Of a DNA stretch of 32,606 nucleotides, positions 2,906-30,536 are shown piece by piece. The notes under the pieces were generated by a model, which saw only the letters and a list, made by a program, of their open reading frames with translations, was not told the origin of the DNA and did no database searches. This DNA comes from Thermoplasmata archaeon (GTDB lineage Archaea; Thermoplasmatota; SW-10-69-26; JACQPN01; JAJPHT01). Numbering within the stretch: position 1 is the first letter of the stretch; every line of letters begins with the position of its first letter. The position numbers were made by a program, and so were the translations under genes. Location: the NCBI GenBank assembly GCA_034667685.1, contig JAXDQU010000056.1, positions 1 to 32,606 on the forward strand, written 5' to 3'.

Positions 2906-2941
2906 TCCTCGTTCCCGTCCCCACCGCGGCCGGTTTCTGGC

Positions 2942-3023
2942 TCCAGCCACAGAGGACACAGAGGCCACGGAGGACGATTGGACCATCGCCGCCTCCGTGG
3001 CCTCTGTGTCCTCTGTGGCTGGA
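2942..3023. repeat. Perfect 32-bp inverted repeat built from three 9-mers (ccacagagg/acacagagg/ccacggagg)
   Basis: The arms at 2942-2973 and 2992-3023 are exact reverse complements, with an 18-nt loop. Confidence 0.95.
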
Positions 3024-7610: not shown

Positions 7611-7660
7611 GTGTTATCGCAGCAGACAACTTGATCCTCCGTACTTGATCTCCAGCCCTG

Positions 7661-8794
7661 ATGAAGCGGTTCGCTCCTCCGCTGGTCTGCATGCTTGTCC
7701 TCGCCTGCTTGCCGGCAAGCATCGGGTCGAGCGCGTCCCCCACGGGCCCGACCAGGGCGCACGTGGCTTGGTCGAGCCCTTCATCCTCGACGTTCGACAA
7801 CGTCACATTCGCGGTACCCCGGGGCGTTGCGATTGCGACGGACAACGCCACCTACTTCTACGCGTCCACAGCCTCCATCGTGGAACTGTCGGGGACGGTC
7901 TCCCCAACGTGCTCGAACGGACTGCTGGGATTCGACGACCAGGCTGTTTTCCTTGGGGCGGACACGTGCATGTGGGCTGTCTTTCCTGCCATCGCCTGTT
8001 TCGGCACGCCACTTTGCCGTCAAGTCGCCCTCGGCACGGGCGTGCTGCCAGGTCTGCCTGGCCCGTGGGGCCCGACTCCTCACACCACCACGAACTACGA
8101 CTACCTTCAAGTCGGAGTGGTCACGCAACAATCTTCGAGCGTGACGTCCTATGGGATTCGGACGGGCGTGGCGATGACGGACCGGAGCGATACGTTTTCG
8201 TTGCCAAGCGAGTATCATTTCCGCTGGGCCGGAATCCAGACGGCAGCGGATTTTTTCCTGCAAATGGGAACGGCGATGTCCAATCCGTCCGGTCCGAACG
8301 TCTGGAAGACCTTCTGCGAAGGGTGGCCGGATCACCATACCACAGACTGGAGCTATTTTGATCCCTCCGCGACGTCGGACAGCAACTTCCATTATTATTC
8401 GTTCCAGGCATCGACCATTGGATCAACGACCTACCAGTGCAGGAAGGACTTCCAGGTCCTGCTGAGCGTCGATACAGGCCATTCGTCGTTCAGCGCACCC
8501 AAGTTGGATAGCATCCTTGAGGTGGCTGGCGGAGCGGTGGGTCTTGATCCAAGCTTGATCCACGCGGGGACGGACACGCTCAGCCCGGCCGTCGACTACC
8601 TCACAAGCGGGTCAAGCTGGCTCGATGCTCCGACGGAATCCTACTATGCGCAGGCCTGGAATTCGCACGTCAGCGGTAGCTCGGCCAATTCGTGCCCGAT
8701 CTTCTCGATCGGACAAACGCTTCCCTTCTCAACGACCCATGACATCACGGTGGGCTCTGGGCTCACTTGCCATTCGAGTGGGGTTGCATGGTAA
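7661..8794 (+). CDS. Secreted Ser/Thr-rich hypothetical protein, possibly with a G1 glutamic-peptidase-like C-terminal domain
   Basis: Signal peptide MKRFAPPLVCMLVLACLPASIGSSA. Pattern WAGI...FLQMG...CEGWP...SILEV. Several Cys residues. Confidence 0.7.
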   Translation: MKRFAPPLVCMLVLACLPASIGSSASPTGPTRAHVAWSSPSSSTFDNVTFAVPRGVAIATDNATYFYASTASIVELSGTVSPTCSNGLLGFDDQAVFLGADTCMWAVFPAIACFGTPLCRQVALGTGVLPGLPGPWGPTPHTTTNYDYLQVGVVTQQSSSVTSYGIRTGVAMTDRSDTFSLPSEYHFRWAGIQTAADFFLQMGTAMSNPSGPNVWKTFCEGWPDHHTTDWSYFDPSATSDSNFHYYSFQASTIGSTTYQCRKDFQVLLSVDTGHSSFSAPKLDSILEVAGGAVGLDPSLIHAGTDTLSPAVDYLTSGSSWLDAPTESYYAQAWNSHVSGSSANSCPIFSIGQTLPFSTTHDITVGSGLTCHSSGVAW

Positions 8795-9255
8795 GCGCTC
8801 TCAGGCCGCTCTTCATGGCGGCCCTCGCGTGCGGGCTCGCGGGCTGTATGGGCTCCACGGGGGACGTGTCCGACACGGGCAACCACTCGACGCTGACCGT
8901 CACCCCGTGGAACCGGACGGGCAACGATTGGCTGGAGGTGCACTTGGCTTGGACACAAGGGACCGGGCAGAACGTCACATGGAAGGGGCGCGAGTACGCG
9001 ACCGCGCCGGGCGACGAGTGGGCAACAGATGGAGAGAACTATCTCTATGCGCGGAACGCGAGCCAGGATTCCGCGCATGCGCGCTGCCTTGCGGAAAGCC
9101 CTCCCGACCTCTCTCTGACGCGGGAGAAACCCTACGTCTGGATCGGCAAGGTCCCCGGCGGTTGCCTCTGGGACGTGTTCCCGGGCGTGGACTGCCTCGA
9201 CGCGAGCTTCTGCCAATACCTGACGCGGTCTGCGGGGCCGCCCCCATCTTCCTAA
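8788..9255 (+). CDS. Putative lipoprotein
   Basis: ATG at 8788 overlaps the end of the upstream gene. MVSALRPLFMAALACGLAGC carries an LAGC lipobox. Four further Cys residues. Confidence 0.7.
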   Translation: MVSALRPLFMAALACGLAGCMGSTGDVSDTGNHSTLTVTPWNRTGNDWLEVHLAWTQGTGQNVTWKGREYATAPGDEWATDGENYLYARNASQDSAHARCLAESPPDLSLTREKPYVWIGKVPGGCLWDVFPGVDCLDASFCQYLTRSAGPPPSS

Positions 9256-12311: not shown

Positions 12312-13547
12312 CTACCCGAAGTCGATCTCTTCGAGCGCCTTGGGCGTGTGGACCTTGGCGAACTCGGAGAGCGCGGCGGCGAGCATCGTGCGGTCGTCGC
12401 TGTGGTAGAGCACGACATGCTCGGGCTTGCAGCGCTTCGCGAACTCGACGATCTCGCTGTGGCCGGCGTGGCCCGAGAAGTCGAAGCTGCGGATCTCGCA
12501 CGCCACCTTCTCGTGCTTGCCCTTGCCCAGGTCGAGGCCGCCGGTGTCGAGCAGGCTGCGCCCGCCGGAGCCGGGGACCTGATAGCCCGAGAAGAACACG
12601 GCGCTCTTCTCGTCCTCCTTGAGCTGGCTGAGATAGTAGAGCGCGGGGCCGCCTTCGAGCATGCCGCTCGTCGTGATCAGCACGTCGCCCTTGACGGCGC
12701 GCTCGCGCTGCGCGGGGTTCTTCACGAGGTTGCACTTCTCGAGGGCCTGCTGCATCTCGCGGCGGTCCTTGAGGTAGCGGTTGTCCTCGAGCATCATCTG
12801 CACGACGGCCTTGCCCATGCCGTCGACCCAGATGTCGTACCCCTGCTGCGCGAGGACGCACATCATCTCCTGGGTGCGGCCCACCGCGAAGCAGGGCATG
12901 ACGACCTTGCCACCCTGCGCGATGACGCCGTCCACCGCGTCGAGGAGCTGCTCCTCGGTCTGCTTGCGGTCGGGGTGCTCGCGGCCGCTGTACGTCGCCT
13001 CGATGGCGAGCACGTCGCAGCGCACCGGCTCGGCCTTGGCGACGAGGTGCGTGTCGATGAGGTTGATGTCGCCGGTGAACAGCAGGCGCGTGGAGCCGTC
13101 GTCCAGCTCGAACATCGTGCTGCCGGGGATGTGGCCCGCGCTGTGGAAGCGCACGTCGAACTCGCCGCTTTCGCGGACGTCGCCGTAGTGCCGCTCGTCC
13201 CACTGCGCGTTCATGGCCGCGATGTCCTCGCGCCGGAAGGGCTGCGGATAGCCTTCGAGGCGCGCGACCTTCATGCTATCATACGCGAGCAGGTCGCTCA
13301 TCGTGCGCGTCAGGCTCGTGCCCACGATGGGGCAGCCCTGCTTGCCGGCGACGAGGGGCACCATGCCGCTGTGGTCGAGGTGGGAGTGCGAGAGGAAGAG
13401 CGCCTCGACGTCGGGCGCGGGGTGGGGGTACTCGGGCGGGTCGCGCGGCGCCATGCCGTAATCGAAGAGCAGCGTCGTCCGACGCCCCTCGACGACCATG
13501 CCGAGCCGCCCGACCTCGTCCACACCTCCCAGGAAGTGGGTACGCAT
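12312..13547 (-). CDS. MBL-fold beta-CASP ribonuclease without KH domains (aCPSF2-like)
   Basis: MRTHFLGGVDEVGR, FDYG, SHSHLDH, AGHIPGS, FTGD, EATY, FSGHAG and YHSD. TATA-like tttaag 26-31 nt upstream of the ATG at 13547. Confidence 0.9.
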   Translation of the reverse strand: MRTHFLGGVDEVGRLGMVVEGRRTTLLFDYGMAPRDPPEYPHPAPDVEALFLSHSHLDHSGMVPLVAGKQGCPIVGTSLTRTMSDLLAYDSMKVARLEGYPQPFRREDIAAMNAQWDERHYGDVRESGEFDVRFHSAGHIPGSTMFELDDGSTRLLFTGDINLIDTHLVAKAEPVRCDVLAIEATYSGREHPDRKQTEEQLLDAVDGVIAQGGKVVMPCFAVGRTQEMMCVLAQQGYDIWVDGMGKAVVQMMLEDNRYLKDRREMQQALEKCNLVKNPAQRERAVKGDVLITTSGMLEGGPALYYLSQLKEDEKSAVFFSGYQVPGSGGRSLLDTGGLDLGKGKHEKVACEIRSFDFSGHAGHSEIVEFAKRCKPEHVVLYHSDDRTMLAAALSEFAKVHTPKALEEIDFG

Positions 13548-18762: not shown

Positions 18763-21219
18763 TCAAGGGGACCGCCTCCGCCGCGCGAGGGCGAGGACGA
18801 GGATGAGGGCGAGGGAAAGGGGGACCTGGGGTCCGGGCACGCCGTGCGCGGGCGTGCTGGGCGTGGGCGTGGGCGGCGCGACCGCCTGCGCGAAGAGCGT
18901 GATGTTGTCCTCCGCGACCGTCTCGTTGGGCGCCTCGGGCACGGTGCGCGCGCGCAGCAGGATCGCCGCGTGGTCGGCGGGCGTGACGCCGCCGGGCGCG
19001 CGGACGGTGACCTGGAGCGTGCGGCTCTGGCCGGGCTCAAGGCGGAACGCGTCGTGGAGGAAGTCCACGGCCCACACGAAGCCGTTGGTGGCGGTCTGGT
19101 CGGCCAGGACGAGGTAGGGGCGCGAGATGGACCCGTTGTTGGTGATGGTCACGTTGAACACTGCCGCCTGCGACGGTGCGACGTATTTGACGGAACCGGC
19201 AGCCGTCACGTGGACGCCCAGGTGCGGATTGACGCGGAAGTGCAGGACGACGGTGTCGCTGACGTTGGGCCCCTCCAGGTTGAACGTCACCGTGTCGGAG
19301 GTGCCGTTCGGCGTGCTCGGCGGAGGCGTCACGACGACGCGGATGGGCGTGATGGAGCCCTGCGGCAGGCGGAAGCTCGTCTGGTCGACCGAGAGCCCCC
19401 ACCCCGCGCTGCCGCTGACGGTCTGCGTGTAGCGCAGGCCGACCGCCGCGTCCGAGGTGCCGTTGTTGACGACGGTGATGACCGCGTCGGTGGGCTGGCC
19501 GGGCGTGACCAGGTACTCGGTCTGGTTGACCGCGAACGTGACGTTGGCCACGCCCTCGAAGGAGACGGAGAGCGTCGCGGCGTCCGAGCCCGAGAGGCCG
19601 GTCGCCACGAGGCTCACGCCGTGCGTGCCGGTGAACTGGGGCGTGGAGGAGAGCGTGACGTTGACGTGCCGCGGCGTCCCGGGCGAGACGGTGACCACGG
19701 GCGCGTCGATCGACGCGGTGAGGAACGGATCGGGCGAGACCGAGAGCGAGACGGTCTCCGGCGCCGAGCCGTTGGCCTCCACGACCATGTCGAAGACTGT
19801 GCTGGCGCCGGCGCGCAGCGGGCGCACGGGGCCGGTCTTGCCGCCCGTGGGGTGGTGGAGCAGGAAGCCGCGCGCGAGCGTCGTCGACCAGACGGTGTGC
19901 CCCTCGCGGTAGGCCATCCGGGTGCCCGCGTCGTTGAGGCGCGCGTCCTCGATCGGCCCCGTGAACGAGCTGGCGGGCAGGACCCAGATGGGGCCCGCCG
20001 CGTCGGGACCGTAGGCGTACGCGCCGTCCGCGCTGGAGTTGGTGACGCTGGCGACGAGGATGGCGCCCGTGCCGTTGTAGCTGAGCGACTGGACGCGGCC
20101 CGGCGCGCTGGCGGACCACGCGGGGGCGGGCGCGCCCGTGGCGCCCAGCGCGAAGGTGTCGAGCTTGCCGCCCGCGACGAGCGCGAGACGCGAGCCGTCG
20201 GTGGAGATCGCGAGCTGCGAGACGTTGTCGCTCCCCGCGCCGGCCTGGTAGGCGCCCTGGTACGTGGCGGTGGCGCCGTCGAGGACGACGAGGCGGCCGG
20301 TGGTGGTCCCGAGCGCGACGAGGCGGCCGTCGGGCGTCGCGGCCATCGTGGCCAGGCGCGTGCCGTTGGCGGGCTCGACGTACCGCGCGCCGAAGGGCTG
20401 GCCGTCGCGGTACGAGACGAGCGCGAGGCCGGCGCTGGTGCGGTTGCCCGGCAGCGCGAAGTCGCCGCCCACGAGGAGCCGGCTCATCGCGCCATCGGCC
20501 GCGAGCGCGCCGGGCGCTCCCGCGAACGTGGTGGAGAAGACGTGCGTGGCCGTGCCGGCCGCGTAGCCGTACGCCTCCAGGGTGAAGTTGCCGTTGCCCG
20601 CGTCGACGAGCACCGCGACGCGCGAGCCGTCGTCCGAGATGGCGAGGCCCGTGGCGGCGACGCCGGGGATCTCCAGCGCGGCGCTCTGGATCGGGCCGGC
20701 GGAGAAGTTGCCGCCCAGGGGCGCCTCGTCCACGTAGAGCTTCAGCGTGCGCGGCTCCTGCGGGTTCGGCGTGGGCGGCTGCGGGTTCATCGGATCGGGC
20801 GTGGAGGGCGCGCTCGTCTGCGTCGTGCGGTCGAGGCCCACGCTCGCGACGGAGTGCCCGTCGGGCGTGACCGCGACGAGCGTGCGGCCCAGGGGCTGCG
20901 TGTTGCCCTGCACGGCGAGGTTGCCCGTGCCGTTGTGGACCCAGCCCACGTCGCTCTGCAGGATCGAGAGGTCGGGGACCGTCGTGGGCGGCTGCGTCGG
21001 GTTCGTCGGCGGACAGACCAGCGTGCAGCCGGTGGAGACGAACGAGTAGGCGTCGAGCGCGACCGCGATCGTCGTGCCCTGGCGCGCGAAGGCGAGCGCG
21101 TGCGTCTGCGCGAGCGCGTTGTATGGGGTCCACGGCTCCGCCTGCGGCGCGTCGGCGCGCGCGAGCGGCGCGAAGGGCAGCAGCAGGAGCAGCGCGAGCG
21201 CGAGCGGCGCGACCTTCAT
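18763..21219 (-). CDS. Surface glycoprotein: beta-propeller plus Ig-like repeats, PGF-CTERM-like tail
   Basis: ATG at 21219 overlaps the upstream TGA (ATGA). Signal MKVAPLALALLLLLPFAPLARA. Blade motifs such as LAISDDGSRVAV, ATPDGRLVAL and LAISTDGSRLAL. Ends VPGP-hydrophobic-RRRR. Confidence 0.85.
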   Translation of the reverse strand: MKVAPLALALLLLLPFAPLARADAPQAEPWTPYNALAQTHALAFARQGTTIAVALDAYSFVSTGCTLVCPPTNPTQPPTTVPDLSILQSDVGWVHNGTGNLAVQGNTQPLGRTLVAVTPDGHSVASVGLDRTTQTSAPSTPDPMNPQPPTPNPQEPRTLKLYVDEAPLGGNFSAGPIQSAALEIPGVAATGLAISDDGSRVAVLVDAGNGNFTLEAYGYAAGTATHVFSTTFAGAPGALAADGAMSRLLVGGDFALPGNRTSAGLALVSYRDGQPFGARYVEPANGTRLATMAATPDGRLVALGTTTGRLVVLDGATATYQGAYQAGAGSDNVSQLAISTDGSRLALVAGGKLDTFALGATGAPAPAWSASAPGRVQSLSYNGTGAILVASVTNSSADGAYAYGPDAAGPIWVLPASSFTGPIEDARLNDAGTRMAYREGHTVWSTTLARGFLLHHPTGGKTGPVRPLRAGASTVFDMVVEANGSAPETVSLSVSPDPFLTASIDAPVVTVSPGTPRHVNVTLSSTPQFTGTHGVSLVATGLSGSDAATLSVSFEGVANVTFAVNQTEYLVTPGQPTDAVITVVNNGTSDAAVGLRYTQTVSGSAGWGLSVDQTSFRLPQGSITPIRVVVTPPPSTPNGTSDTVTFNLEGPNVSDTVVLHFRVNPHLGVHVTAAGSVKYVAPSQAAVFNVTITNNGSISRPYLVLADQTATNGFVWAVDFLHDAFRLEPGQSRTLQVTVRAPGGVTPADHAAILLRARTVPEAPNETVAEDNITLFAQAVAPPTPTPSTPAHGVPGPQVPLSLALILVLALARRRRSP

Positions 21220-23699
21220 CCGCGGCGACCTCCGAGGCGGCGCGCCACCGCGGCGAGCGCCACCATCCCCACGACCAGGAGCGGCGAGGGGCCGGGCAGG
21301 AAGTTGCCCTTGGCGCTGGGCGTCGTGACCGCGGGCTTCGCCGAGAGCGCGATGACGAAGCTCGACTGCGCCCCGGCTGGATCGCCCGTCGAGGTGGCGG
21401 TGAGCGTGATCGTCGCGTCGCGCGACTGCGTGGCGAGGTTCTTCACCGTGAACGCCACGGGCCGGATCTGGCCGATGGGAACGCTGACCTGCTGCACCGA
21501 GAGCACGACGCGCCAGTCGGTGTTGTTGGCGACGCTGGGCGCGATGCTGTAGCTGAGGTTGTAGACGTCCTCGGTGTTGCCCGTGTTGTGGACGTTGAGC
21601 ACCAGCGCGCGCTCCTCGCCCGGATAGAGCTGGAGGCTGCTGTTGGTCGCGTTGAGCTCGGAGCCGAAGAGCGCATCGACGTACGCGGTGAAGCTCTTCG
21701 ACGCGACCGCCGACTCGCCCTCCTTCGCGTAGACGGTGAGGACGTTCCGGTCGCCGCTCACGGCGTCCTTGGGCGCCGTCACGACGAGGTCGACGTTGAC
21801 CGTGGCGCCCGCCGGGACGTGGATCTGGTTGCCCGGACGGAACGACTGGGGCCAGCTCGACCCGCGCGTGAGCGTCTGCGTCACGCTGAGGTTCACGATG
21901 CCCTCCGCGTTGCCGTTGTTGGTGATCGCCAGCGGGATGTCGTCCTCCGCGCCCTGCTTGAGAAGACGCTTCTCGTCGGGACCGCCCACCGAGAGCGCGA
22001 TCGTCCGCGCCAGCGTGAGGTTGATCGACGGGCACGCCACCGTGTCCGAGGACACGCCGCCGCACGAGACGGGCTTCACGTTCGCGTTCGCGTTGGCCGC
22101 GTGCACCTCGATGACGATCGGGTACGCGCCAGGCGCCTGGCCCAGGGGCGCGGTCACCGTCAGGTTCGCCACGCCCGTCTGGTCCGGATCGAGCCGCATC
22201 GGCGGCACGCTGTTGACCGTCCAGGGCGAGGTCGTGCTGGAGAGCGGCTGCTGCACGACGAAGCTGAAGTTGTCCGTCAGGCTGCCCGCATTGCGCACCG
22301 TGAGCTGGAGCGACAAGGGCGCGCCCGGCACGATCGCGCTCCCCGCGGGCGCCAGCAACGTCGCCGCCGCCGACTCGCCCACGTCGAACGCCGCGACGTT
22401 GGTCCGGCCCGCCACCACGACGCGCGTCGCGTCCTGCGTGGGGTGATAGACGCCATCGTACCAGGCGTCCGCCACGCGCACGCTGTGCACCGGAACGCCC
22501 AGGCCCGTCGCCACCGCGTCGATCGTCCAGACCGGATCCAGCCGCCCCGGCGAGAAGCCGAGCACGCTGTTCCCCGCCGCCGCCACGAGCAGACGGCCCG
22601 AGCCGTCATACGAGAGATCCGTGACCGGCGCGCCGGCGTCATAGTCGCCATCGAACTGCGCGATCAGGCTGTTGTGAAGCGCATGGAAGAAGCTGACGCG
22701 CGTCCCGCTCGCCGAAGCGAAGCGCTCGCCATCCTGCGAAAGCGCCACCGCCACCACCGCCGCCTGCCCCGGCGTCTGGCGGCTGAACACCGGCCGCACG
22801 ATGTCGTGCGAGACCGGATCCACGCGCATGTAGTAGGTGTAACCGTTGGTCGCCGCCGCCACCACGTCGCCCGCCGCGCTGAGCGCGACCTCGTTCACCG
22901 GCGACGTGTTGTACGGATGCAGATCATCGCTCGTGGCGGGCGCATCGTCCGAAGGCACCAGCACGTCCACGCCACCGGGCGTCCCGATCGCCACCAGGCC
23001 GCCATCGCGCGCCCACGCCAACGACGTCGCGTACGTCGCGCTCTGCGCCGAGTTGACCAGCGCGTAGTTCCACTTCAGATCGCCCGCGCCGCTGTACATC
23101 GTCAACATGCCCGTGCTCGTCCCCGAGCGCGACGCGAAGAGCGCATGCTGCCCATTGGGCGCGATGCTGGCATTGAGCGCCGTCACCTGGCTCGTCACCG
23201 AGCCCAGGTTGTGCTCCCAGTGCGCCGCCGACTCCGTCGAGACCCAATACGAGACCAGATCGCCCGGACCCGCCACCGCAAAGGCCGACTGCAAGCCACC
23301 CGCCGTCGTGTACGCCGTCCCGCTCACCGACTGCGTCATCGACGTCGACCCGGACGAAGGGCTGAACTGATGGCTCGCCGTCCGACACCCCTGGTTCGAC
23401 TGCCCAAAGTCGCACACGTACACGCTGGGCTGGCTCGAAAGCTGCCCCGGCGTGCTCTGGCACGTCACGCCCGGAATGCAAGTCCCCGAAGGAATCCCCG
23501 AGCCGCTCGCCGCCGGCACGCTCTCCACCGCCAACGCCACCTGGCCCGCCGGATCAAGCGCCAAATCCGAAACCTCCAACGACCCCGTCGCCTGGACCGA
23601 ATCATGGAGCGGAGGCGCAGCACCCTCCGCCCACGGAACCAGAGGCGCGGCAAGAAGAGCCGCCAAAAGCGTGACCAAGATCGCGCGGCCGTGGGGCAT
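21216..23699 (-). CDS. Surface glycoprotein paralogue: beta-propeller plus Ig-like repeats, PGF-CTERM-like tail
   Basis: Signal MPHGRAILVTLLAALLAAPLVPWAEG. Blades LAWARDGGLVA, VALSQDGERFA and LSYDGSGRLLV. Ends LPGP-hydrophobic-RRLGGRRG. Confidence 0.85.
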   Translation of the reverse strand: MPHGRAILVTLLAALLAAPLVPWAEGAAPPLHDSVQATGSLEVSDLALDPAGQVALAVESVPAASGSGIPSGTCIPGVTCQSTPGQLSSQPSVYVCDFGQSNQGCRTASHQFSPSSGSTSMTQSVSGTAYTTAGGLQSAFAVAGPGDLVSYWVSTESAAHWEHNLGSVTSQVTALNASIAPNGQHALFASRSGTSTGMLTMYSGAGDLKWNYALVNSAQSATYATSLAWARDGGLVAIGTPGGVDVLVPSDDAPATSDDLHPYNTSPVNEVALSAAGDVVAAATNGYTYYMRVDPVSHDIVRPVFSRQTPGQAAVVAVALSQDGERFASASGTRVSFFHALHNSLIAQFDGDYDAGAPVTDLSYDGSGRLLVAAAGNSVLGFSPGRLDPVWTIDAVATGLGVPVHSVRVADAWYDGVYHPTQDATRVVVAGRTNVAAFDVGESAAATLLAPAGSAIVPGAPLSLQLTVRNAGSLTDNFSFVVQQPLSSTTSPWTVNSVPPMRLDPDQTGVANLTVTAPLGQAPGAYPIVIEVHAANANANVKPVSCGGVSSDTVACPSINLTLARTIALSVGGPDEKRLLKQGAEDDIPLAITNNGNAEGIVNLSVTQTLTRGSSWPQSFRPGNQIHVPAGATVNVDLVVTAPKDAVSGDRNVLTVYAKEGESAVASKSFTAYVDALFGSELNATNSSLQLYPGEERALVLNVHNTGNTEDVYNLSYSIAPSVANNTDWRVVLSVQQVSVPIGQIRPVAFTVKNLATQSRDATITLTATSTGDPAGAQSSFVIALSAKPAVTTPSAKGNFLPGPSPLLVVGMVALAAVARRLGGRRG

Positions 23700-23760
23700 G
23701 TGGAGGCACTCTCCCGGCGGCAACGGCCGGCGGAATCCGACGCCGCGGATTCGAGTGGCC

Positions 23761-23769
23761 CTATAAAAG
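23761..23769 (-). promoter_or_regulatory. TATA box of the surface-protein operon
   Basis: The minus strand reads cttttatag about 65 nt upstream of the ATG at 23699. This is the clearest TATA in the window. Confidence 0.65.
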
Positions 23770-23806
23770 GCCTCGGAATCGCGCGCCACGCGCACGACCA
23801 CACCCA

Positions 23807-23828
23807 TTTTCCAGGGGAAAACGCGGGG
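23807..23828. promoter_or_regulatory. Palindromic operator or ORB-like motif
   Basis: ttttcc-agg-ggaaaa palindrome at 23807-23821 followed by cgcgggg. Confidence 0.4.
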
Positions 23829-23913
23829 CAACGCCCCCCTCTCCAAACCCTCCGCGAAAGCCCTTCCGGTGACGCGCTGAAAAGACGATGCCCGCTACGT
23901 CGATCCGCGAAAG

Positions 23914-24264
23914 CTAACGACCGCCAAGAGCCGCCTGCAACTCCGTCTGAAGCGCCGTCACACGCTCACGCAGACGCGACTCCTGCCGCTTCGCGCTCTC
24001 CAACCGGACCGTCATCGTCTCCTTCTGGTCCATCAACTCCGCCACCAACGCCTCCCGATCCTGCACCCGCGCCAAGATGCTCCCCACGCTCCGATACAAC
24101 GGAGCCCCCGCCGGCACCTTCGCCAACTCCTCCAACGTCCGCTCCACCTCACGGACCTGAAGCTCCACCTGCTGCCGCTGCGACACCACCACCTGCGCCT
24201 GCTGCTGCAACTCCTGAAGCTGCGCAAGCTGATTCTGGATCTGCGGCGGAAGCTGCCCGGCCAT
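23914..24264 (-). CDS. pfdB: Prefoldin beta subunit
   Basis: MAGQLPPQIQNQLAQLQELQQQ...LYRSVGSIL... coiled coil, 116 aa. Expected position in the superoperon. Confidence 0.93.
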   Translation of the reverse strand: MAGQLPPQIQNQLAQLQELQQQAQVVVSQRQQVELQVREVERTLEELAKVPAGAPLYRSVGSILARVQDREALVAELMDQKETMTVRLESAKRQESRLRERVTALQTELQAALGGR

Positions 24265-24340
24265 CAAACGCGCAAGACGAGGACGGGGGAAGAACGTTGC
24301 GGGCAGGCCGGGCGGCGCGGGGTGGGACGGGGCCGGCAGC

Positions 24341-24448
24341 CATCTGGGCCAGGTGGGCCACGTGACCCACGTGGGCCACCTGGCACACCTGGCCCACGTG
24401 GGCCAGGTGTGCCATGTGGGCCAGATGGCGCAGATGGCCCGCGTGGGT
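24341..24448. repeat. Tandem array of twelve 9-bp units (CANNTG+3 nt) containing a perfect 34-bp palindrome
   Basis: Units: catctgggc caggtgggc cacgtgacc cacgtgggc cacctggca cacctggcc cacgtgggc caggtgtgc catgtgggc cagatggcg cagatggcc cgcgtgggt. The palindrome spans 24381-24414. Confidence 0.95.
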
Positions 24449-24496
24449 GCGCCGATTCCCGGATAACATTCCGTCTCCGAGCCCCACGCCGTCGTC

Positions 24497-24808
24497 ATGC
24501 ATCTTCGTGACGAGACGCGCCGTTCCCTTCGTCGAAGCCGGCAGCGCGAGATGGTGTTCTTGGCGTTGCGGGCGCAGCCGGGGGTGACGGCGGAGGAGTT
24601 GGCGCGGGGGACGCGGGTGCGCGTGTCGCGGGTGCAGGCGATCTTGCATGGGGAGCTTCCGGAGTTTGCGCCGGGGCGTGCGCTGTTGGCGTTGGGGTTG
24701 GCGCGGGCGACGGGGACGCCGTTCGGGCTCGTGTATGAGTTGACGGCGCAGGGGGAGCACGAGGCGGATGCGGTGACGCTGTTGCGGTTGGCGGGTCGGC
24801 CGGTGTGA
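24497..24808 (+). CDS. Winged-helix DNA-binding protein, EarA/DUF1495-like
   Basis: SLRRSRQREMVFLAL...AEELARGT...VQAILHG...LLALGLA...YELTAQG follows the EarA-family pattern (SLRRS-R...E-AR...L-LGLV...Y-LT--G). 103 aa. Confidence 0.7.
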   Translation: MHLRDETRRSLRRSRQREMVFLALRAQPGVTAEELARGTRVRVSRVQAILHGELPEFAPGRALLALGLARATGTPFGLVYELTAQGEHEADAVTLLRLAGRPV

Positions 24809-24810
24809 GC

Positions 24811-25056
24811 TCAGGGGCCGGCGAGGGCGGCGGCCTTGTGGGCGGCGTCGATCCAGCGGAGGTAGGAGTTCAGGGCGGCGCGGAGGGAGGCGGGGTCGTC
24901 GGCTTCGAGGTGGATGCGGATGCCGGTTGGCTCGCGGGTGAGGTCGGCGCGCGTCTTGGGGACTTCGCTGGCGTTGGCTTCGGGGGCGAGGGCGCGGGCG
25001 ATGGCGTCCGCTGGGCCTTCGGGGAGCTCGAAGAAAAGATCGGCCGAATGGTGCAT
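24811..25056 (-). CDS. pcc1: KEOPS complex subunit Pcc1
   Basis: ARALAPE...LEADDPASLRAALNSYLRWI. ATG at 25056, 81 aa. Confidence 0.9.
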   Translation of the reverse strand: MHHSADLFFELPEGPADAIARALAPEANASEVPKTRADLTREPTGIRIHLEADDPASLRAALNSYLRWIDAAHKAAALAGP

Positions 25057-25067
25057 CCGCGCTCGCG

Positions 25068-25205
25068 TCAGCGAGAGTGGACGCGCTTGGCGATGGTGGG
25101 GCGTTCCTTGTAGAACACCTTGGAGCCGCAGTAGGGGCAGCGCATGCCGATGTTGTTGGTGTCGAACTCGACGTTGCGCTTGCACTTGCCGCAGCGGTAG
25201 TCCAT
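25068..25205 (-). CDS. rpoP: DNA-directed RNA polymerase subunit P (Rpo12)
   Basis: Not in the ORF track. Hand translation gives MDYRCGKCKRNVEFDTNNIGMRCPYCGSKVFYKERPTIAKRVHSR* (45 aa, C4 zinc ribbon). Confidence 0.95.
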   Translation of the reverse strand: MDYRCGKCKRNVEFDTNNIGMRCPYCGSKVFYKERPTIAKRVHSR

Positions 25206-25209
25206 GCCT

Positions 25210-25503
25210 TCACTCCTGGGCGGGGGCGGGCATCTTGCCCTCGGAGAGCTCGCGGAGGACGCGCTCGTTGGCGTTGTACGCGGGCGTGTGGGGCAGGTAG
25301 GCGCCGCCGGCGAACTTGTGGCCGCACTTGCGGCATTCCCAGATGCCGGTGTCCGTGCGCTTCACGCGGGGCGCGGCGCAGGCGGGGCAGGTGTGCCACG
25401 CCTTCTGGCGCGCTTCGACCTCGCGGATGCGGCGGCGGATGCTGACGCCGTAGCGGGGGCCGAAGCGACCGACGGACTTGACCTTCTTGGTGCGGAGCGA
25501 CAT
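25210..25503 (-). CDS. rpl37ae: 50S ribosomal protein L37ae (eL43)
   Basis: [12 protein letters not shown]...GIWECRKC...FAGGAY. GGAGG SD upstream. Confidence 0.97.
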
Positions 25504-25570
25504 GGGGTTCCTCCTCCGAGGATGCGGACCCTGGGCGGGTCCGGAACAGGCGTTGGCAAGTCGGCTTCCC

Positions 25571-25583
25571 TACTTAACGATTT
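25571..25583 (-). promoter_or_regulatory. Putative BRE/TATA for rpl37ae-rpoP-pcc1
   Basis: The minus strand reads aaatcgttaagta about 70 nt upstream of rpl37ae. Confidence 0.55.
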
Positions 25584-25613
25584 GGGGGGTCCCAGCCACG
25601 CGCCTGCAAGCTC

Positions 25614-25827
25614 CCGCCAACACGCGAGCGCGCTGCGGAGTCGGGCTCGTCTGTCCGCGTGTTGGCGTGTTCGCGTGTTGGCGGCCCCGTGGAACGAGCC
25701 ACACGAGGATTCCGGGTGCAGGCCCGGGGCCTCAAGGCCAAAGCGTCGAAGCCTCCGAAGACCGCCTCGGACGGGCAGTCGCGCGCAGGCGCCGCGGCGC
25801 TCCCGATGCTCGTCTTCGGAGGCTTCG
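25614..25827. repeat. Two intergenic hairpins
   Basis: 14-bp IR at 25614-25627/25671-25684 with tandem gcgtgtt(g/c) 8-mers. 16-bp IR at 25747-25762/25812-25827. Confidence 0.75.
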
Positions 25828-25853
25828 GCCTTCGGGCTTCGGGTAATCGTGGC

Positions 25854-26990
25854 TTACGGCGCCCCCGGCACCGGCGCGGGGTACGGGATCAGCTGTCCGT
25901 TGGCCATCGTCGCGGTCACGAGCGTCGCGCGCGTGCTGGCGAGGTAGCCGATGCCCGTGTTCAGGCTGGCGTCCACGAAGATGTGGGTGTTGATGCCGGC
26001 GGCCTCGCGCTCGGCGCCCACGGCGTCGCCGGTGAGCGTGTTGGAGGCGGAGCCGCTGTCGCCGGGCGTGATGGCGCCTTCCCAGATCATCGTGCTGCTC
26101 GTCCAGTAGAACGCGGTGCCGGCGCGGGGCGTGCCGTCGGTGCCGATGCCGGCGCCGTGGCCGTAGTGGACGATGCCCTGCACGAGGAAGGGGTCGGTGT
26201 TCAGGGTCGGTCCGCTGATGAGGTTGCGGCCCAGCAGGCTCGCGGCGAGGGTGGCGCCGGTGTCCTTGTACTGGCCGATGGGGCCGCCCCAGAAGCACAT
26301 GGTGGGCGAGACGAGGCCCTGGTTGGCGGTGTTGATGCCGATGAGGGCCCAGTCCTTGCCGATGCCGGCGTCGCCGGTGCTCTTGACGAACTTGCCGAAG
26401 TCCAGGAGGATCGGCACGGAGACGGCGGGCAGGCCGAAGAAGGGGCGGTCGAAGTTGCCCACGGCGGCGATGACCGTCGCGGTGTCCCCGACGTTGCCGC
26501 AGTGGCCGGCGGTGCTGATCTGATAGCTTCCGGGCGTGCCGTAGACGTGGGCCATGCTGCACAGCGAGATCGCGTCGGGAGAGAGAAGCAGGAGCCACGC
26601 GCCGGGGCGGATGCCCAGGCAGCCCGTGCCCGCGTAGGAGGCAAGGGCTGACGCGCTGACGCCCTGCGTGGTGCCGTCAGGGAAGACGGCGGTGGGCGTG
26701 TCGTAGCGCTGCGCGAGCAGGACGTCGCGCGGGGGCAGGCCCATGAGCGCGAGGTCGTCGTCGCTGAGCGTCATCTTCATCGGCGCCCAGGTGCCGGCGG
26801 GGTAGGTCGCGAGCAGGTGGTCGACGAAGTGCTGGCGAAGCTGGCACATCGCGGTGGGGTCCACGGTGAACTCGCCGACGCTGGTCAGCGTGGGGGCTTG
26901 CGTCGCGGCGAGCGAGGTCGTCGCGACGAGGGGCAGGCTCAGCGCCGCGAGCACGAGCAGCACGGCGAGGTTTCGGGTCTTGGTCTCCAA
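25854..26990 (-). CDS. Secreted chymotrypsin-like (S1) serine protease with N-terminal pro-region
   Basis: TTG start after GGAGG. Signal peptide ...LAVLLVLAALSLPLVATTSLA. Catalytic triad motifs TAGHC, KDWALI and GDSGS. Confidence 0.85.
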   Translation of the reverse strand: METKTRNLAVLLVLAALSLPLVATTSLAATQAPTLTSVGEFTVDPTAMCQLRQHFVDHLLATYPAGTWAPMKMTLSDDDLALMGLPPRDVLLAQRYDTPTAVFPDGTTQGVSASALASYAGTGCLGIRPGAWLLLLSPDAISLCSMAHVYGTPGSYQISTAGHCGNVGDTATVIAAVGNFDRPFFGLPAVSVPILLDFGKFVKSTGDAGIGKDWALIGINTANQGLVSPTMCFWGGPIGQYKDTGATLAASLLGRNLISGPTLNTDPFLVQGIVHYGHGAGIGTDGTPRAGTAFYWTSSTMIWEGAITPGDSGSASNTLTGDAVGAEREAAGINTHIFVDASLNTGIGYLASTRATLVTATMANGQLIPYPAPVPGAP

Positions 26991-27000
26991 TCCAATCACA

Positions 27001-27020
27001 GCCTCCGGTTTCCCGGAGGC
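27001..27020 (-). promoter_or_regulatory. GAAA-tetraloop hairpin covering the protease SD
   Basis: mRNA sense gccuccgg-GAAA-ccggaggc. The GGAGG lies in the 3' arm. Confidence 0.5.
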
Positions 27021-27059
27021 CGGAAAAATCGGCGTGCGGAGTTTCAAGTCATCGCCAGC

Positions 27060-27108: not shown

Positions 27109-27909
27109 TTAGCCGACCTGCTTGAGGAGCTGCTCGCGCAGCATGCCCGCGAGCTCGCCGCCGCGGCGGACGATGTGGCGGACCTCGTCCTTGGTGAACG
27201 AGCCGCCCAGGCCCTTCTGCATGGCGCGGATGTTGCCGGCGCGGTCGAACGAGACCGAGAGGCGCGGCCCGCCGACCTTCTCCTCGAGCGAGGTGGGGTC
27301 GAAGAGGATCTGGCCGCCCAGCTTGATCGCCGTGACCATGACTGGGATCTCCTTGACCGGCATGGGCGCGTCGGCCATCGCGGGGATCCCGTCGATGTGC
27401 ACCTTGCCGTTGGGGACGGTGGCGCTCATGAGCGCGGCGATGCAGCCCAGGCTGCACGCGTCGAACATGTTGCCGTCGTAGTCGATGGCGTGCATGTCGA
27501 GGTAGCTCATCCAGATCTTCTCGCCCGGCTTGATGCAGAGCTTGCCGAAGTCGATGCACTTGCTCTCGCGGATCCCGCGGTCGACGACGCGCGCCAGCTC
27601 GATGCTGGTCTGCGAGGGCGGGCCGACCTCGAAGTCGGCGCTCGCCAGCGGGACCAGCTCGGCGCTCGTGGTCATGGTGCCGTCGTTGGGCGCGTCCGGG
27701 TAGGGCGTGCCCACGGACATCTTGATGCCCACGATGACCTGCGTGTCGCCCAGGTGGACGCGGGCGCTGCCCTCGGCCTGCTGGATGTAGCGCGTCGTGA
27801 TCTTCACGGGGCGGTACTCGTCGAAGGCGCGCCCGTCGTGGCGCTTGCCTTCCTTGGCGAGCTGGACGAGGTAGTCCTTCTTGATGTCGGCGACGACGTC
27901 GTCGGACAT
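27109..27909 (-). CDS. rrp42: Exosome core subunit Rrp42
   Basis: RHDGRAFDEYR, AEGSARVHLGDT, FEVGPP, IELARVVDRGIRES and DPTSLEE. Confidence 0.96.
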   Translation of the reverse strand: MSDDVVADIKKDYLVQLAKEGKRHDGRAFDEYRPVKITTRYIQQAEGSARVHLGDTQVIVGIKMSVGTPYPDAPNDGTMTTSAELVPLASADFEVGPPSQTSIELARVVDRGIRESKCIDFGKLCIKPGEKIWMSYLDMHAIDYDGNMFDACSLGCIAALMSATVPNGKVHIDGIPAMADAPMPVKEIPVMVTAIKLGGQILFDPTSLEEKVGGPRLSVSFDRAGNIRAMQKGLGGSFTKDEVRHIVRRGGELAGMLREQLLKQVG

Positions 27910-28704
27910 TCAGGCTCCCTCCTCGATGGGCGCGGGCGCGGCGGCCTCGGGCTCCTTCTCCTCGTCGTCGCCCTGCGCGGCGGATTGATAGCGGCGCAGG
28001 AGCGCGGCCTTCTGGAGCTCGTAGACCTCCATCGCGGCGTTCGTCGCCAGCTCGAGGGCCTGGTCGAGCTCGTCGGGCGAGAAGTGGCCGTCCTGCTGGA
28101 GCAGGACGATCTCGCCGGTCTTGGGCACGATGGCGATGGGGAAGTCCGTCTCGCCGTAGTTGTCCTCCTCGCGCGAGAGGTCGAGGCAGACCTTGCCGTC
28201 GACCTTGCCGGCGGCCACCGCAGCCACCATGCCGCGCATGGGGATGCCAGCGTCGGCGCACGCGACGGCGGCCGCGGTCAGGCCCGCGCAGCGCGTGCCG
28301 GCCTCGGCCTCGATGATCTCGATGAAGATATCAATGGCGTTCTTCGGGTAGAGCGAGGTCAGGACGACGTGGTCGAGCGCCTCGGAGCTGATCTTCGAGA
28401 TCTCCTGGCTGCGGCGGTCGGGGCCGGGGCGCTTGCGGTCGGAGACGGAGAACGCGGCCATGTTGTAGCGCACGCGGACGCGCGCCTTGGTCGGGTCCTG
28501 GTCGTGGCGCGGGTGGCACTCGCGCGGCCCGTAGACCGCGGCCATGACCTTGTTGCCGCCCCACTCGAGATAGCACGAGCCGTCGGCCTGCTTGAGCACG
28601 CCCGCCTCGATCTTGATGTTCCTGAGCTGGTCAGGGCGACGTCCGTCCATGCGGAGGCCCTGTTCGTTGATGAGAACCATTCCTTCGGGTTTCTTTCCAC
28701 CCAT
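27910..28704 (-). CDS. rrp41: Exosome catalytic subunit Rrp41
   Basis: RMDGRRPDQLR, ADGSCY, VYGPRE, RYNMAAFS, GTRCA and EDNYGETD. ATG at 28704 follows GGAGTGA. Confidence 0.96.
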   Translation of the reverse strand: MGGKKPEGMVLINEQGLRMDGRRPDQLRNIKIEAGVLKQADGSCYLEWGGNKVMAAVYGPRECHPRHDQDPTKARVRVRYNMAAFSVSDRKRPGPDRRSQEISKISSEALDHVVLTSLYPKNAIDIFIEIIEAEAGTRCAGLTAAAVACADAGIPMRGMVAAVAAGKVDGKVCLDLSREEDNYGETDFPIAIVPKTGEIVLLQQDGHFSPDELDQALELATNAAMEVYELQKAALLRRYQSAAQGDDEEKEPEAAAPAPIEEGA

Positions 28705-28709
28705 GACAA

Positions 28710-30536
28710 TCACTCCTGTCCTCGGCCGCCGTTGCCGCGGCCGCGTCCGCCACGCCGTCCGCGCCCGCCGCGGCGGCGATCGCCGCCACCGTCCGAGTCG
28801 CGGCGCGCGGGGCGCTCGTCTTCCTCGTCCTCGTCGCTGGCCGCGAATCGTCGCGGCGAAGACGAACCCGAAGGCTCGTCGGAAGCCGCGAATCGTCGCG
28901 GCGGAGGCGAGCCCGCAGGCTCGTCCGTGAAACGGCGGGGCGCGGGCTTGCGAGGAGCATCCGTCTCCTCGTCGTCATCGAAGCGGGAGGGGCGGCGCGC
29001 GGCGGGGCGCGGCGCCTCGTCCTCCTCGTCGAAGCGTGAGATGCGGGGCGGGGCGCGGCGGGGCGCCTCCCCCTCGTCGGCCGCGAAGCGTCGCGGCGGG
29101 GGCGAGCCCGCGGCCTCGTCCGAGAAGCGGGGGCGCGGCGGCGCGCGCTCCTCGCGGCGCGGAGGGCGGTCGCCGCGCTCTTCCTCGAAGCGGCGCGGGC
29201 GCTCCTCGCGGCCGCGGGGCTCCTCGAACCGCCGCGGAGGACGCTCGCTGCGCTCCTCCTCAAAGCGGCGAGGCGGCGCGCGCTCCTCGCGGCGCGCCCG
29301 GCTGAACGGCTCGGCCTCGCCTTCGCCCCGGCTGCGGGGCTCCTCGAAGCGGCGCGCGGGGCGCTCCTCCTCGAAGCGGCGGGGCGGGGCGCCCCGGCCG
29401 AACGATTCGGCCTCGCCCTCGGCGGAGCGCCGACGGGGCTCCTCGCGGCGCGGCTCGTCGCGGCGGGCGGCGCGCTCCTCGTGGCCGTGGTGGCGCTCGC
29501 CGGCGCGGCGCTCGGAGTGGTGGCGCTCGTGGCGCACCTCCCCGCGGGGCCCGCGGCGCTCCTCCAGGTCCGCGTCGGCGGTGTCGTCCTCGGCGGCGCG
29601 CTGGTAACGGTGCTTCTCGGCCTCGCTGCGGCCGGCGCGGGGGCGCTCCTCGCGCGTCTCGCGGCGCGGCGGGCCCCGGCCGAACGATTCGGCCTCGCCC
29701 TCGGCGGAACGCCTGCGGGGCTCGGCGCGCGCGGGGGCTTCCTCCTCCTCGGCGAGGCGGCTGGGACGCTCGCGGCGTTCCGGACGCTCGCGGCGCTCGC
29801 GCGTGATCTCGCGGTCCTCCTCGGCTTCGGCCTCGACCTCGCTGGACTGCTTGTGGGTGCGCTGCGCGCTGGGGCGCTTCTCCTCGAGCCAGGCCTTCAT
29901 GCGGTCCGTGAGCCCGGTCGTGTGCGCCTCGGCCTCGATCTTCTGGAGGCCCTCGAGCGCGAGCTTGACGTCGTCGGCCTCGCCGTCGAGCCAGATCTTG
30001 CCGTTCTGCCCAACGAAGATGCGCACGTTGGTGGCGTCCTTCAGCATGGTGATCATGCTGCCCTGGCGCCCGACGATGCGCGGGACCTTGGTGGGCGCGA
30101 CCTCGAAGATGAGGCCGCCGGTGAGCTTGCGGCACTGGCGGTCCTTCATCGAGACCTGCGCCTTCTTCATCTCGTCCACGTGGACGATCTTGAGAAGGAC
30201 GGTGTCGCCCACGGCGAGGTACTTCGACGTCTCGCCGAACTCGACGCGCCAGGGCACGTCGTTGACGTGCATGCCGACGTCGTTGGCGGCGCCGATGTTG
30301 ATGTACCAGTTGGAGGGGCCGGTCTCGGCCACGGTGCCGATGACCATGTCGCCGCGGAAGGGCTCGTAGCGGCCCGAGAGGCCGATGACGTTCACGCGGT
30401 CGCCACGGACCGCCTTGACGCCCAGCCGGAGGGCGTAGATGTCGCGGCCCTCCACGTAGGTGTTCTGGCCCGGCTGCATCTCTCCGGTGCTTCCGAGGCG
30501 CTCGCCCGGGACCACGACTTGGCGCGTATCGCTCAT
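28710..30536 (-). CDS. rrp4: Exosome RNA-binding cap subunit Rrp4 with a C-terminal low-complexity extension of about 390 aa
   Basis: Residues 1-221 carry the Rrp4 N-domain, S1 and KH features (VVPGERL, YEPFRGDMVIG, KVPRIVGRQGSMI, VGQNGKIW, EAHTTGLTDR). They are followed in frame by an R/E/P-rich tail ending in RGG repeats. Confidence 0.93.
   Translation of the reverse strand: MSDTRQVVVPGERLGSTGEMQPGQNTYVEGRDIYALRLGVKAVRGDRVNVIGLSGRYEPFRGDMVIGTVAETGPSNWYINIGAANDVGMHVNDVPWRVEFGETSKYLAVGDTVLLKIVHVDEMKKAQVSMKDRQCRKLTGGLIFEVAPTKVPRIVGRQGSMITMLKDATNVRIFVGQNGKIWLDGEADDVKLALEGLQKIEAEAHTTGLTDRMKAWLEEKRPSAQRTHKQSSEVEAEAEEDREITRERRERPERRERPSRLAEEEEAPARAEPRRRSAEGEAESFGRGPPRRETREERPRAGRSEAEKHRYQRAAEDDTADADLEERRGPRGEVRHERHHSERRAGERHHGHEERAARRDEPRREEPRRRSAEGEAESFGRGAPPRRFEEERPARRFEEPRSRGEGEAEPFSRARREERAPPRRFEEERSERPPRRFEEPRGREERPRRFEEERGDRPPRREERAPPRPRFSDEAAGSPPPRRFAADEGEAPRRAPPRISRFDEEDEAPRPAARRPSRFDDDEETDAPRKPAPRRFTDEPAGSPPPRRFAASDEPSGSSSPRRFAASDEDEEDERPARRDSDGGGDRRRGGRGRRGGRGRGNGGRGQE

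Follow-up and report, generated by a model that had tools for sequence, protein, structure and literature searches.

Contig JAXDQU010000056.1 of the Thermoplasmata archaeon assembly GCA_034667685.1 (positions 1 to 32,606, hereafter the window) carries an abrupt reversal of strand composition. It is centred on the 232-bp intergenic region (24265-24496) between the divergent genes for the prefoldin beta subunit, pfdB (23914-24264, - strand), and for a small winged-helix protein, wHTH (24497-24808, + strand). The window is contig C56 of the draft genome G000, which comprises 3.48 Mb in 124 contigs with 71% G+C and is 99% complete as judged by marker genes. The flip at 24.2-24.4 kb is the strongest jump of origin polarity in this genome, both in raw form and after correction for gene direction. 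On the + strand the sequence is A/C-rich left of the centre and G/T-rich right of it as far as pcc1 (24811-25056, - strand), irrespective of which strand is coding. The strands running outward (- leftwards, + rightwards) from a point at or just left of a palindromic array at 24341-24449 have thus lost silent-site C to T and G. The pattern is independent of amino acid composition, recurs at other arrays of the same family and is absent from one orthologous locus that lacks the array. The segment from 22.0 to 25.1 kb is very probably the centre of a bidirectional mutational process that acts asymmetrically on one strand from a fixed site.

A sequence-only reading of this stretch had proposed a flip with origin-type polarity near 24.3 kb on the basis of counts over 60-nt lines. 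All five counts are exact: C29/G10 at 23521-23580, C29/G11 at 24121-24180, G32/C14 at 24661-24720, G32/C13 at 24841-24900 and G23/C12 at 21541-21600. The GC skew of 500-nt windows goes from -0.296 (23751-24250) to +0.355 (24501-25000), which confirms the proposed polarity. Third-position skew in 300-nt windows goes from -0.74 (24001-24300) to +0.82 (24601-24900), and both of these extremes exceed the 0.1% and 99.9% quantiles of the genome (-0.63 and +0.64; 30,061 windows). For the genome scans, gene direction was deduced window by window. Ranked by the raw difference between the adjoining left and right 1 kb, 24300 is the top peak of the genome and the array position comes second of 64,203 positions. 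After correction for gene direction the peak at 24400 (jump J=1.04) takes first place among 29,826. Coding third-position skew above 0.35 occurs in only 27 of 26,651 confidently oriented windows, whose only cluster of at least five spans 23901-24800. Several G-rich genes reported by the crude gene caller were discarded as antisense frames of ordinary genes. The cumulative skew minimum expected near 24.3 kb exists as a sharp local minimum but does not extend to the contig as a whole: cumulative G minus C is 957 at 22000, drops to 758 at 24330 and has climbed to 1269 by the contig end, with its global minimum at base 223. Cumulative G-C and keto skew reach their local minima at 24214 and 24278, to the left of the array by 60-130 bp.

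The asymmetry resides in silent sites. In pfdB, skew by codon position is +0.03, -0.09 and +0.80, and the four-fold degenerate sites of the coding strand, the most C-depleted in the genome, count G42 C4 T14 A0 (skew +0.83). The corresponding counts in wHTH are G53 C5 T8 A1 (skew +0.83), and codon positions 1 and 2 have skews near zero in both genes. Since the per-gene four-fold skew of the genome has a mean of -0.137 and a 99th percentile of +0.31 (standard deviation 0.155; 2,473 genes, crude caller), these two genes fall far outside the genomic range. Across the wHTH stop codon the + strand G/T excess continues into pcc1, and the coding strand of that gene is therefore A/C-rich: its four-fold sites count G4 C44 (skew -0.83), and 4 of its 8 two-fold purine codons end in A, compared with 9.6% of GAR, CAR and AAR codons genome-wide. 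Right of the flip the + strand is thus G-rich in wHTH (+) and pcc1 (-) alike, and the proposed indifference to gene direction holds. The next two genes, rpoP (25068-25205, -) and the gene for ribosomal protein L37ae (25210-25503, -), have four-fold skews of -0.89 and -0.68 and A-ending two-fold codons at 1/7 and 2/17.

Gains of T accompany gains of G. Leucine is encoded by TTG 9 times and by CTG once in pfdB, and 10 times versus twice in wHTH, where the genomic TTG/(TTG+CTG) fraction is 9.3%. T ends 8.3% of two-fold pyrimidine codons in the genome, 5 of 9 in wHTH, and, in the gene downstream of pfdB (surf, 21216-23699, -, a secreted beta-propeller/NPCBM_assoc surface-type protein by Pfam), 29 of 77 in the 5' part and 5 of 62 in the 3' part. 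A codon alignment of pfdB with four congeners gives, in this genome, CGG or CGT for CGC, CTT or TTG for CTC or CTG, and GTG for GTC; therefore C has been lost to both T and G on the outward strand. Amino acid composition, which the sequence-only reading had named as a possible undoing of the feature, is ruled out as its cause by the location of the skew at third, four-fold and two-fold synonymous positions.

The asymmetry fades with distance from the centre. Third-position counts in 40-codon bins of surf pass smoothly and without a step from G20 C9 T11 in the first bin to G12 C27 T1, and its coding four-fold skew, +0.57/+0.69 at the 5' end, has sunk to -0.24/-0.12 by the 3' end, in agreement with the fading described earlier for this gene. 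On this side the asymmetry is strong from 23699 to about 22400 and gone by about 21800. Expressed as direction-corrected residuals, the left side gives -0.50 at 0.1-1.5 kb and -0.135 at 1.5-3 kb, followed by +0.05 to +0.12, and the right side gives +0.47, +0.21 and +0.04. The range of decay is about 1-2.5 kb; beyond about 3 kb the asymmetry is gone and far left and far right have the same sign. The right-hand zone ends at about 25.1 kb, because pcc1 is more C-ending than its orthologues (-0.83 versus -0.56 to +0.08) and rpoP and L37ae are not (orthologues -0.25 to -0.68 and -0.02 to -0.69, respectively). Beyond this point the ordinary codon bias of ribosomal and polymerase genes adds to the apparent flip.

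The array at the centre consists of twelve contiguous 9-bp units over 108 bp (24341-24449), is quasi-palindromic and has the consensus CANNTGGSC, with the hexamers CACGTG, CAGGTG/CACCTG, CATGTG and CAGATG. Tandem Repeats Finder (TRF) reports it with period 9 and 8.8 copies at 24345-24423, and a perfect 24-bp palindrome occupies 24386-24409. The distance to the divergent gene starts is 77 bp for pfdB and 48 bp for wHTH. As single-stranded DNA the array folds with -60.5 kcal/mol (z = -7.97), and 0 of 200 shuffles were as good. The intergenic region has 72% G+C and contains no AT-rich unwinding stretch, since even its lowest 40-nt window has 62.5%. A related strain (run X3) differs at six positions of the array, between 24352 and 24371, and this element therefore evolves fast. 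For runs X1 and X2, the ends of Logan contigs fall inside 24385-24410, a difference table implies a contig end of X3 near 24406-24410, and none of the listed Logan contigs bridges the palindrome with 31 letters on each side. Intergenic, hairpin-forming and present in three related copies, the array has the properties of a palindromic repeat of the kind of repetitive extragenic palindromes (REP) or miniature inverted-repeat transposable elements (MITE). It shares with the other REP/MITE-like repeats of this genome the intergenic hairpin with a stem of short tandem repeats, but the array family has three copies, all on skew flips, as against 211 other hairpins scored.

A search with 2.7 units and at most 2 mismatches found this family at three loci only, on C56, C35 and C79, plus a lone 2-mismatch site on C31; the pattern gave 27+27 matches on the two strands, compared with 2+2 for a reversed control. 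With a four-unit pattern, arrays were found in G000 only among 15 genomes of the order, and the other genomes had 0-1 two-mismatch matches, like controls. All three arrays are intergenic and all lie on flips of one polarity, with local switch points within about 130 bp of each. The array positions on C56, C35 and C79 rank 2, 10 and 311 of 64,203 by raw jump. Among corrected peaks C56 is first, C35 about seventh (J=0.66, tied with two others) and C79 about 21st of the 36 with J of at least 0.35.

The C35 array (12990-13095) lies between two inward-pointing genes, a sugar kinase gene (+) and gatB (-, about 13.4-14.7 kb). To its left, the + strand four-fold skew is -0.45, -0.59 and -0.54 over the 3' three-quarters of the kinase gene and -0.33 in a small - strand gene. 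To its right it is +0.80, +0.77, +0.68, +0.49 and +0.38 along gatB from its 3' end. A-ending two-fold codons make up 12/24 in the 3' half of the kinase gene versus 3/24 in the far half, and 18/34 versus 3/21 in the corresponding halves of gatB. Because both genes point towards the array, the G/T-rich strand is here the template strand. The C79 array (68463-68568) has a weaker effect, with a residual of -0.19 on the left and a coding skew of +0.19 to +0.26 in the first gene on the right. Just right of both the C35 and the C79 arrays (L038 6100-6240, L039 5600-5740) there is a dispersed element, about 100-140 nt long and composed of G5/C5 hairpins, which also occurs on C120, C11 and C25 and is absent from the window.

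Other centres exist. Corrected peaks of origin type outnumber those of the opposite type 10 to 1 at |J| of at least 0.6 and 18 to 3 at 0.45, and the sole opposite peak at the higher threshold is the far edge of an asymmetric zone in dnaJ. The second strongest centre of the genome lies beside this gene (C106 96642-98079; L054 3643-5080). Here dnaJ (96.96-98.08 kb) has four-fold counts of G10 C187 and A in 49 of 64 two-fold codons; the bias grows in the 3' direction and breaks off sharply where the gene starts. The gene that follows the 322-bp spacer has the opposite bias. Further centres on C65, C105, C110, C124, C25 and C21 have other short palindromic repeats or none that we recognised. Strong flips at C65 (about 1400-1700) and C105 (about 3260-3293) coincide with 3-4 tandem 9-bp units with the palindromic core CGTACGGNC. 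As to other candidate anchors, the jump is close to 0 at 9-bp arrays of other sequence, the CACAGAGGA family among them, CAGGTG/CACCTG clusters in a MITE-like family have small positive jumps only, and GGCC, at 11 per kb and an observed/expected ratio of 0.95, is not specific to centres. The window itself has a hairpin at 2941-3023 in which three CACAGAGGA units face three GCCTCTGTG units; this hairpin is a member of the dispersed family AGCCACAGAGGACACAGAGGTCACAGAGG, none of whose roughly 20 genomic copies is on a skew flip.

The relatives were compared through the congeners G001-G004, of which G003 is the sister species. In G003 the gatB-PRC72-kinase locus retains the gene order and part of the intergenic sequence, lacks the array and shows no gradient: four-fold skew is -0.05, +0.03, -0.04, -0.12 and -0.16 along gatB and +0.04 to +0.20 in the kinase gene. 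The G003 dnaJ orthologue, 84% identical, has four-fold counts of G87 C121 and A in only 3 of 62 two-fold codons. At the pfdB locus the flip, whose conservation the sequence-only reading had left to be checked, exists in weaker form in three of the four congeners. G003 has a different long inverted repeat there, a pfdB skew of +0.44 and an antisense wHTH gene at +0.25; G001 has other inverted repeats and a pfdB skew of +0.32; G002 has 2-3 CACCTGCGS units, no wHTH gene and a pfdB skew of +0.55. The fourth, G004, has no repeats and a different upstream gene, and its pfdB skew is -0.10; values in other genera range from -0.02 to -0.66. As the compared genomes are few and interrelated, this correspondence between repeats and skew is suggestive only. 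Overall, two of the three loci tested have no conserved zone in the sister species. Recent transfer or a recombination block is ruled out by the 93% identity of pfdB to its G003 orthologue, the stepless decay and the weaker versions in three of four congeners.

Does the pattern require a positional process at all? Neighbouring genes might instead have opposite gene-specific codon usage, shaped by translational selection, expression or foreign origin. Coding strands of this genome prefer C at four-fold sites (mean skew -0.137), and nearly all other extreme windows are C-rich coding strands, so that C-richness is no surprise in L37ae and rpoP. Convergent gene pairs alone give origin-type jumps (control mean +0.052, versus -0.056 for divergent pairs), and a survey of archaeal genomes, in the parts considered here, argues that archaeal skews stem mainly from gene orientation and translation with little strand-specific mutation (PMC12999951). 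Gradients within the single genes surf, gatB and kinase nevertheless largely refute this account. The flanking pair in the window is moreover divergent, for which the expected jump is negative, and pfdB is not foreign, because it is 93% identical to that of G003. None of the ribosomal and RNA polymerase genes tested has 50-77% of its two-fold codons ending in A, the G003 orthologues of dnaJ, gatB and kinase are free of bias, and positive jumps exceed negative ones 10 to 1 after direction correction. We therefore regard gene-specific codon usage as highly improbable. An assembly artefact, with pieces misjoined or one of them inverted at the palindrome, can be practically dismissed. Palindromes commonly break assembly graphs, and the X1 and X2 contig ends inside 24385-24410, together with the lack of a bridging contig among those listed, would suit it. 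However, the gene order is kept on independent contigs of relatives, including the antisense wHTH in G003, the decay is gradual and two-sided instead of a step, and the pattern is repeated at two other arrays inside contigs. The feature thus survives the suspicion of a chimera that had been raised against it.

A classical chromosomal origin, firing bidirectionally once per cycle and leaving G/T-rich leading strands, is very unlikely, although it was the interpretation that the sequence-only reading put beside a fixed site of strand-asymmetric mutagenesis; the latter is well supported and the former is not. Polarity, the sharp switch and the indifference to gene direction fit an origin, three arrays would be a plausible number of archaeal origins in a genome with four Orc1/Cdc6 homologues, and a winged-helix gene adjoins the centre. 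As at bacterial oriC and some archaeal origins, the + strand passes from C-rich to G-rich and the departing strands have a G+T excess at silent sites. An orc1/cdc6 gene usually, though not universally, adjoins an archaeal origin. None is near, as had been observed: a whole-genome search with Cdc6_C (PF09079) gave four matches, on C64, C103, C42 and C23, and none on C56, C35 or C79. Nothing similar is seen at the orc1/cdc6 loci, where the largest 1-kb jump is 0.07-0.19. The repeat units are 9-mers in direct succession, unlike spaced boxes of the origin recognition box (ORB) type, although no ORB model search was made, and no AT-rich stretch is present. The asymmetry extends over 1-3 kb instead of a replichore and the residuals further out share their sign (+0.05 to +0.12 far left, +0.04 far right). 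The skew minimum is merely local within the contig. At least 10-18 such centres occur in the genome, and in the sister species the zones are missing at two of the three loci tested. The genome has no replichore-scale skew (residuals of 10-kb blocks have a standard deviation of 0.054, with no long domains); since replication leaves no visible skew here, a classical origin would not be expected to leave one at this site. Taken together, the missing orc1/cdc6 gene, AT-rich stretch and replichore-scale skew indicate that this is not a classical Orc1/Cdc6 origin. Short-range DNA synthesis from the centre is conceivable, if less than probable, either as cryptic or abortive bidirectional initiation or as repair synthesis where the hairpin-forming array breaks. 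In that case the outward strand would either be nascent and pick up G.T mispairs (nascent C>T, A>G) or serve as lagging-strand template and be exposed to deamination, and tracts of 1-3 kb would give the decay. This accounts for two-sided symmetry under any gene arrangement, inward-pointing genes included, and for a smooth, distance-dependent decay across gene and promoter boundaries. The single-stranded array forms a strong fold, long palindromes are known to be fragile, the X1 and X2 contigs (and by implication that of X3) end inside the palindrome, and the zones are lineage-specific, as at dnaJ (G000 versus G003) and at the gatB locus of G003. Strand-coordinated mutation clusters at double-strand breaks are similar in their kilobase range, their two-sidedness and the switch of the mutated strand at the site, next to which a hairpin-forming palindrome lies here. 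Plain 5'->3' resection with deamination of the 3' tail, however, predicts the opposite polarity, and 211 other hairpins are without flips. The abrupt end of the dnaJ zone at the gene start better suits a transcription unit, and the contigs gave no direct evidence of breaks, ends or copy-number changes.

For the fixed-site process, we infer recurrent single-strandedness of the outward strands as the cause. Their polarity could arise if the outward strand is (a) the non-template strand where transcription or R-loops run outward, (b) the lagging-strand template where synthesis is bidirectional or (c) the nascent strand from the centre, with G.T mispairs. We prefer (a), divergent transcription with R-loops, over (b) and (c), although with less than even confidence. 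Transcription would start divergently in the promoter region that holds the array, yielding a pfdB-surf mRNA leftwards and, rightwards, a wHTH mRNA that continues antisense into pcc1. The non-template strand would be exposed as in R-loops and then deaminated, and the G-rich RNA on a C-rich template would reinforce the R-loops. Non-template strands are known to gain G/T through C deamination, GC-skewed R-loop zones of about 1 kb flank CpG-island promoters, and the symmetry of promoters can yield divergent transcripts. The zones at CpG-island promoters and in bacterial genes resemble the present one in their kilobase-scale non-template G/T excess starting at a promoter and in the sign change across a divergent promoter, here the region at the centre. 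The amplitude in the window is far larger, with four-fold skews of 0.8. Similarly extreme skews that change monotonically with distance from a fixed start are known from the single-strandedness gradient of vertebrate mitochondrial DNA, which differs in being genome-wide and one-directional on a small replicon instead of local, two-sided and chromosomal. On C56, C35, C79, C106, C65 and C110, at least one side of the centre has a gene that begins there and points away from it. Such outward genes are G/T-rich on the coding strand on C56, C35 (PRC72) and C106 (96090-96641) by measurement, and on C65 and C110 by eye only. In the window the G/T-rich strand is, as expected for R-loops, the non-template strand of pfdB, surf and wHTH, and the dnaJ zone ends abruptly at the 5' end of that gene.

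Several observations weigh against a transcriptional cause and against the array as its general anchor. In pcc1, gatB, kinase and dnaJ the G/T-rich strand is the template of the annotated gene, and transcription of the genes affected on C35 (kinase, gatB) and C106 (dnaJ) heads for the centre. The transcription model therefore requires long and so far hypothetical antisense RNAs over gatB, kinase, dnaJ and pcc1. The most codon-biased and presumably highly expressed genes have no coding-strand G/T gain (L37ae and rpoP have T at 0/15 each) and no footprint of the kind seen in R-loop zones, and it is unlikely that transcription is highest in pfdB and a wHTH regulator. The decay crosses the gap between pfdB and surf, and a TATA-like box of surf, without stepping up. 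Other top centres lack a CANNTGGSC array. The 211 other hairpins have a mean jump of 0.022, near that of controls with matching gene arrangement, which rules out a general hairpin effect. In G003, no flip occurs at four of the five other sites examined that carry GCACGGG repeats, and at the fifth (L044, a two-unit match) the jump may be due to gene direction; a general rule of species-specific arrays is therefore rejected. The CANNTGGSC family is tightly linked to centres, yet arrays are neither necessary nor, as a structural class, sufficient. All of the evidence is compositional and comes from one draft genome plus few relatives.

The centre lies in an archaeal exosome/ribosome gene neighbourhood. 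To the right of the flip, the - strand encodes rrp41 (27910-28713), rrp42 (27109-27909), a 397-amino-acid protein without Pfam match inserted between L37ae and rrp42 (25854-27047), L37ae and rpoP (both assigned by Pfam) and pcc1 (Pfam Pcc1, E 1.5e-12), which converges with wHTH across a 2-bp gap. The order rrp41-rrp42-L37ae-rpoP-pcc1-(wHTH)-pfdB-surf is kept in order-level relatives on independent contigs. The 397-amino-acid gene has a full-length match at the same position only in G003 (81% identity) among the relatives examined; a match in G008 is weak and partial (29% identity), on the opposite strand and beside L37ae. The product of pfdB was identified by Pfam Prefoldin_2 (E 1.8e-21). The 103-amino-acid product of wHTH is EarA-like, scoring 31.7 bits over residues 9-91 of 103 against a curated cut-off of 22 (Pfam EarA, PF07381), and GC1>GC2 favours the + strand frame. 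Two further EarA-like paralogues are encoded in G000, and G003 also has a wHTH gene antisense at the pfdB locus. In G001 (L022 7520-7990) the EarA-like gene runs in the same direction as the operon and has inverted copies of a CCCGGGTCCCGCCTG-type motif on either side, as if it were a small cassette or lay between its own operators. From its position, the 24265-24496 region presumably holds the promoters of both pfdB and wHTH. The motif GCAACGTTCTTC, which G003 and G001 have as well, occurs about 35-40 bp upstream of the pfdB start, and the TATA-like sequence TATAAAA at 23762-23768 precedes the surf start.

Elsewhere in the window, G+C drops to 0.57-0.64 at 7500-9000, compared with about 0.71, and the lowest 40-nt value of the window (0.40) is at about 8384; this segment could be foreign or non-coding DNA. 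A 45-bp tandem repeat with 2.1 copies at 28830-28925 lies at the edge of a stretch of very high G+C (0.79-0.82; 28750-29750) that contains several more short repeats. No Rfam family reaches its gathering score anywhere in the window. Genome-wide, CTAG is strongly under-represented, at an observed/expected ratio of 0.23.

When only sequence is at hand, the polarity of replication and transcription is read mainly from compositional differences between the strands. The sections considered of the survey PMC12999951 describe archaea as hardly making strand-specific mutational skews; the archaeon described here does the opposite at small scale, with silent sites reaching four-fold skews of 0.8-0.9 no further than 1-2.5 kb from fixed points and in a lineage-specific manner. 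In the parts consulted of reviews on skew and R-loops and of two papers on archaeal skew, supplements aside, we found no kilobase-scale local flips that ignore gene direction. If the pattern is mutational, it marks sites of chronic exposure or error-prone copying of one strand, and core genes such as those for prefoldin, dnaJ and gatB have had their codon usage rewritten by position alone. This would affect inferences of expression and gene transfer that are based on codon usage, and it would provide a testable handle on origin-independent DNA synthesis or R-loops in archaea. We put forward, tentatively and as a possibility we would not yet bet on, that some archaea have sequence-anchored sites where opening of the DNA leaves one strand to be copied or exposed, bidirectionally and over 1-3 kb. 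Such sites would be Orc-independent starts of synthesis or persistent divergent R-loops, with the array as a protein-bound nucleation site, and they would rewrite nearly all silent positions, even of core genes, within the divergence of sister species. If this is true, kilobase-scale keto-skew footprints would map such sites in uncultured archaea from sequence alone.

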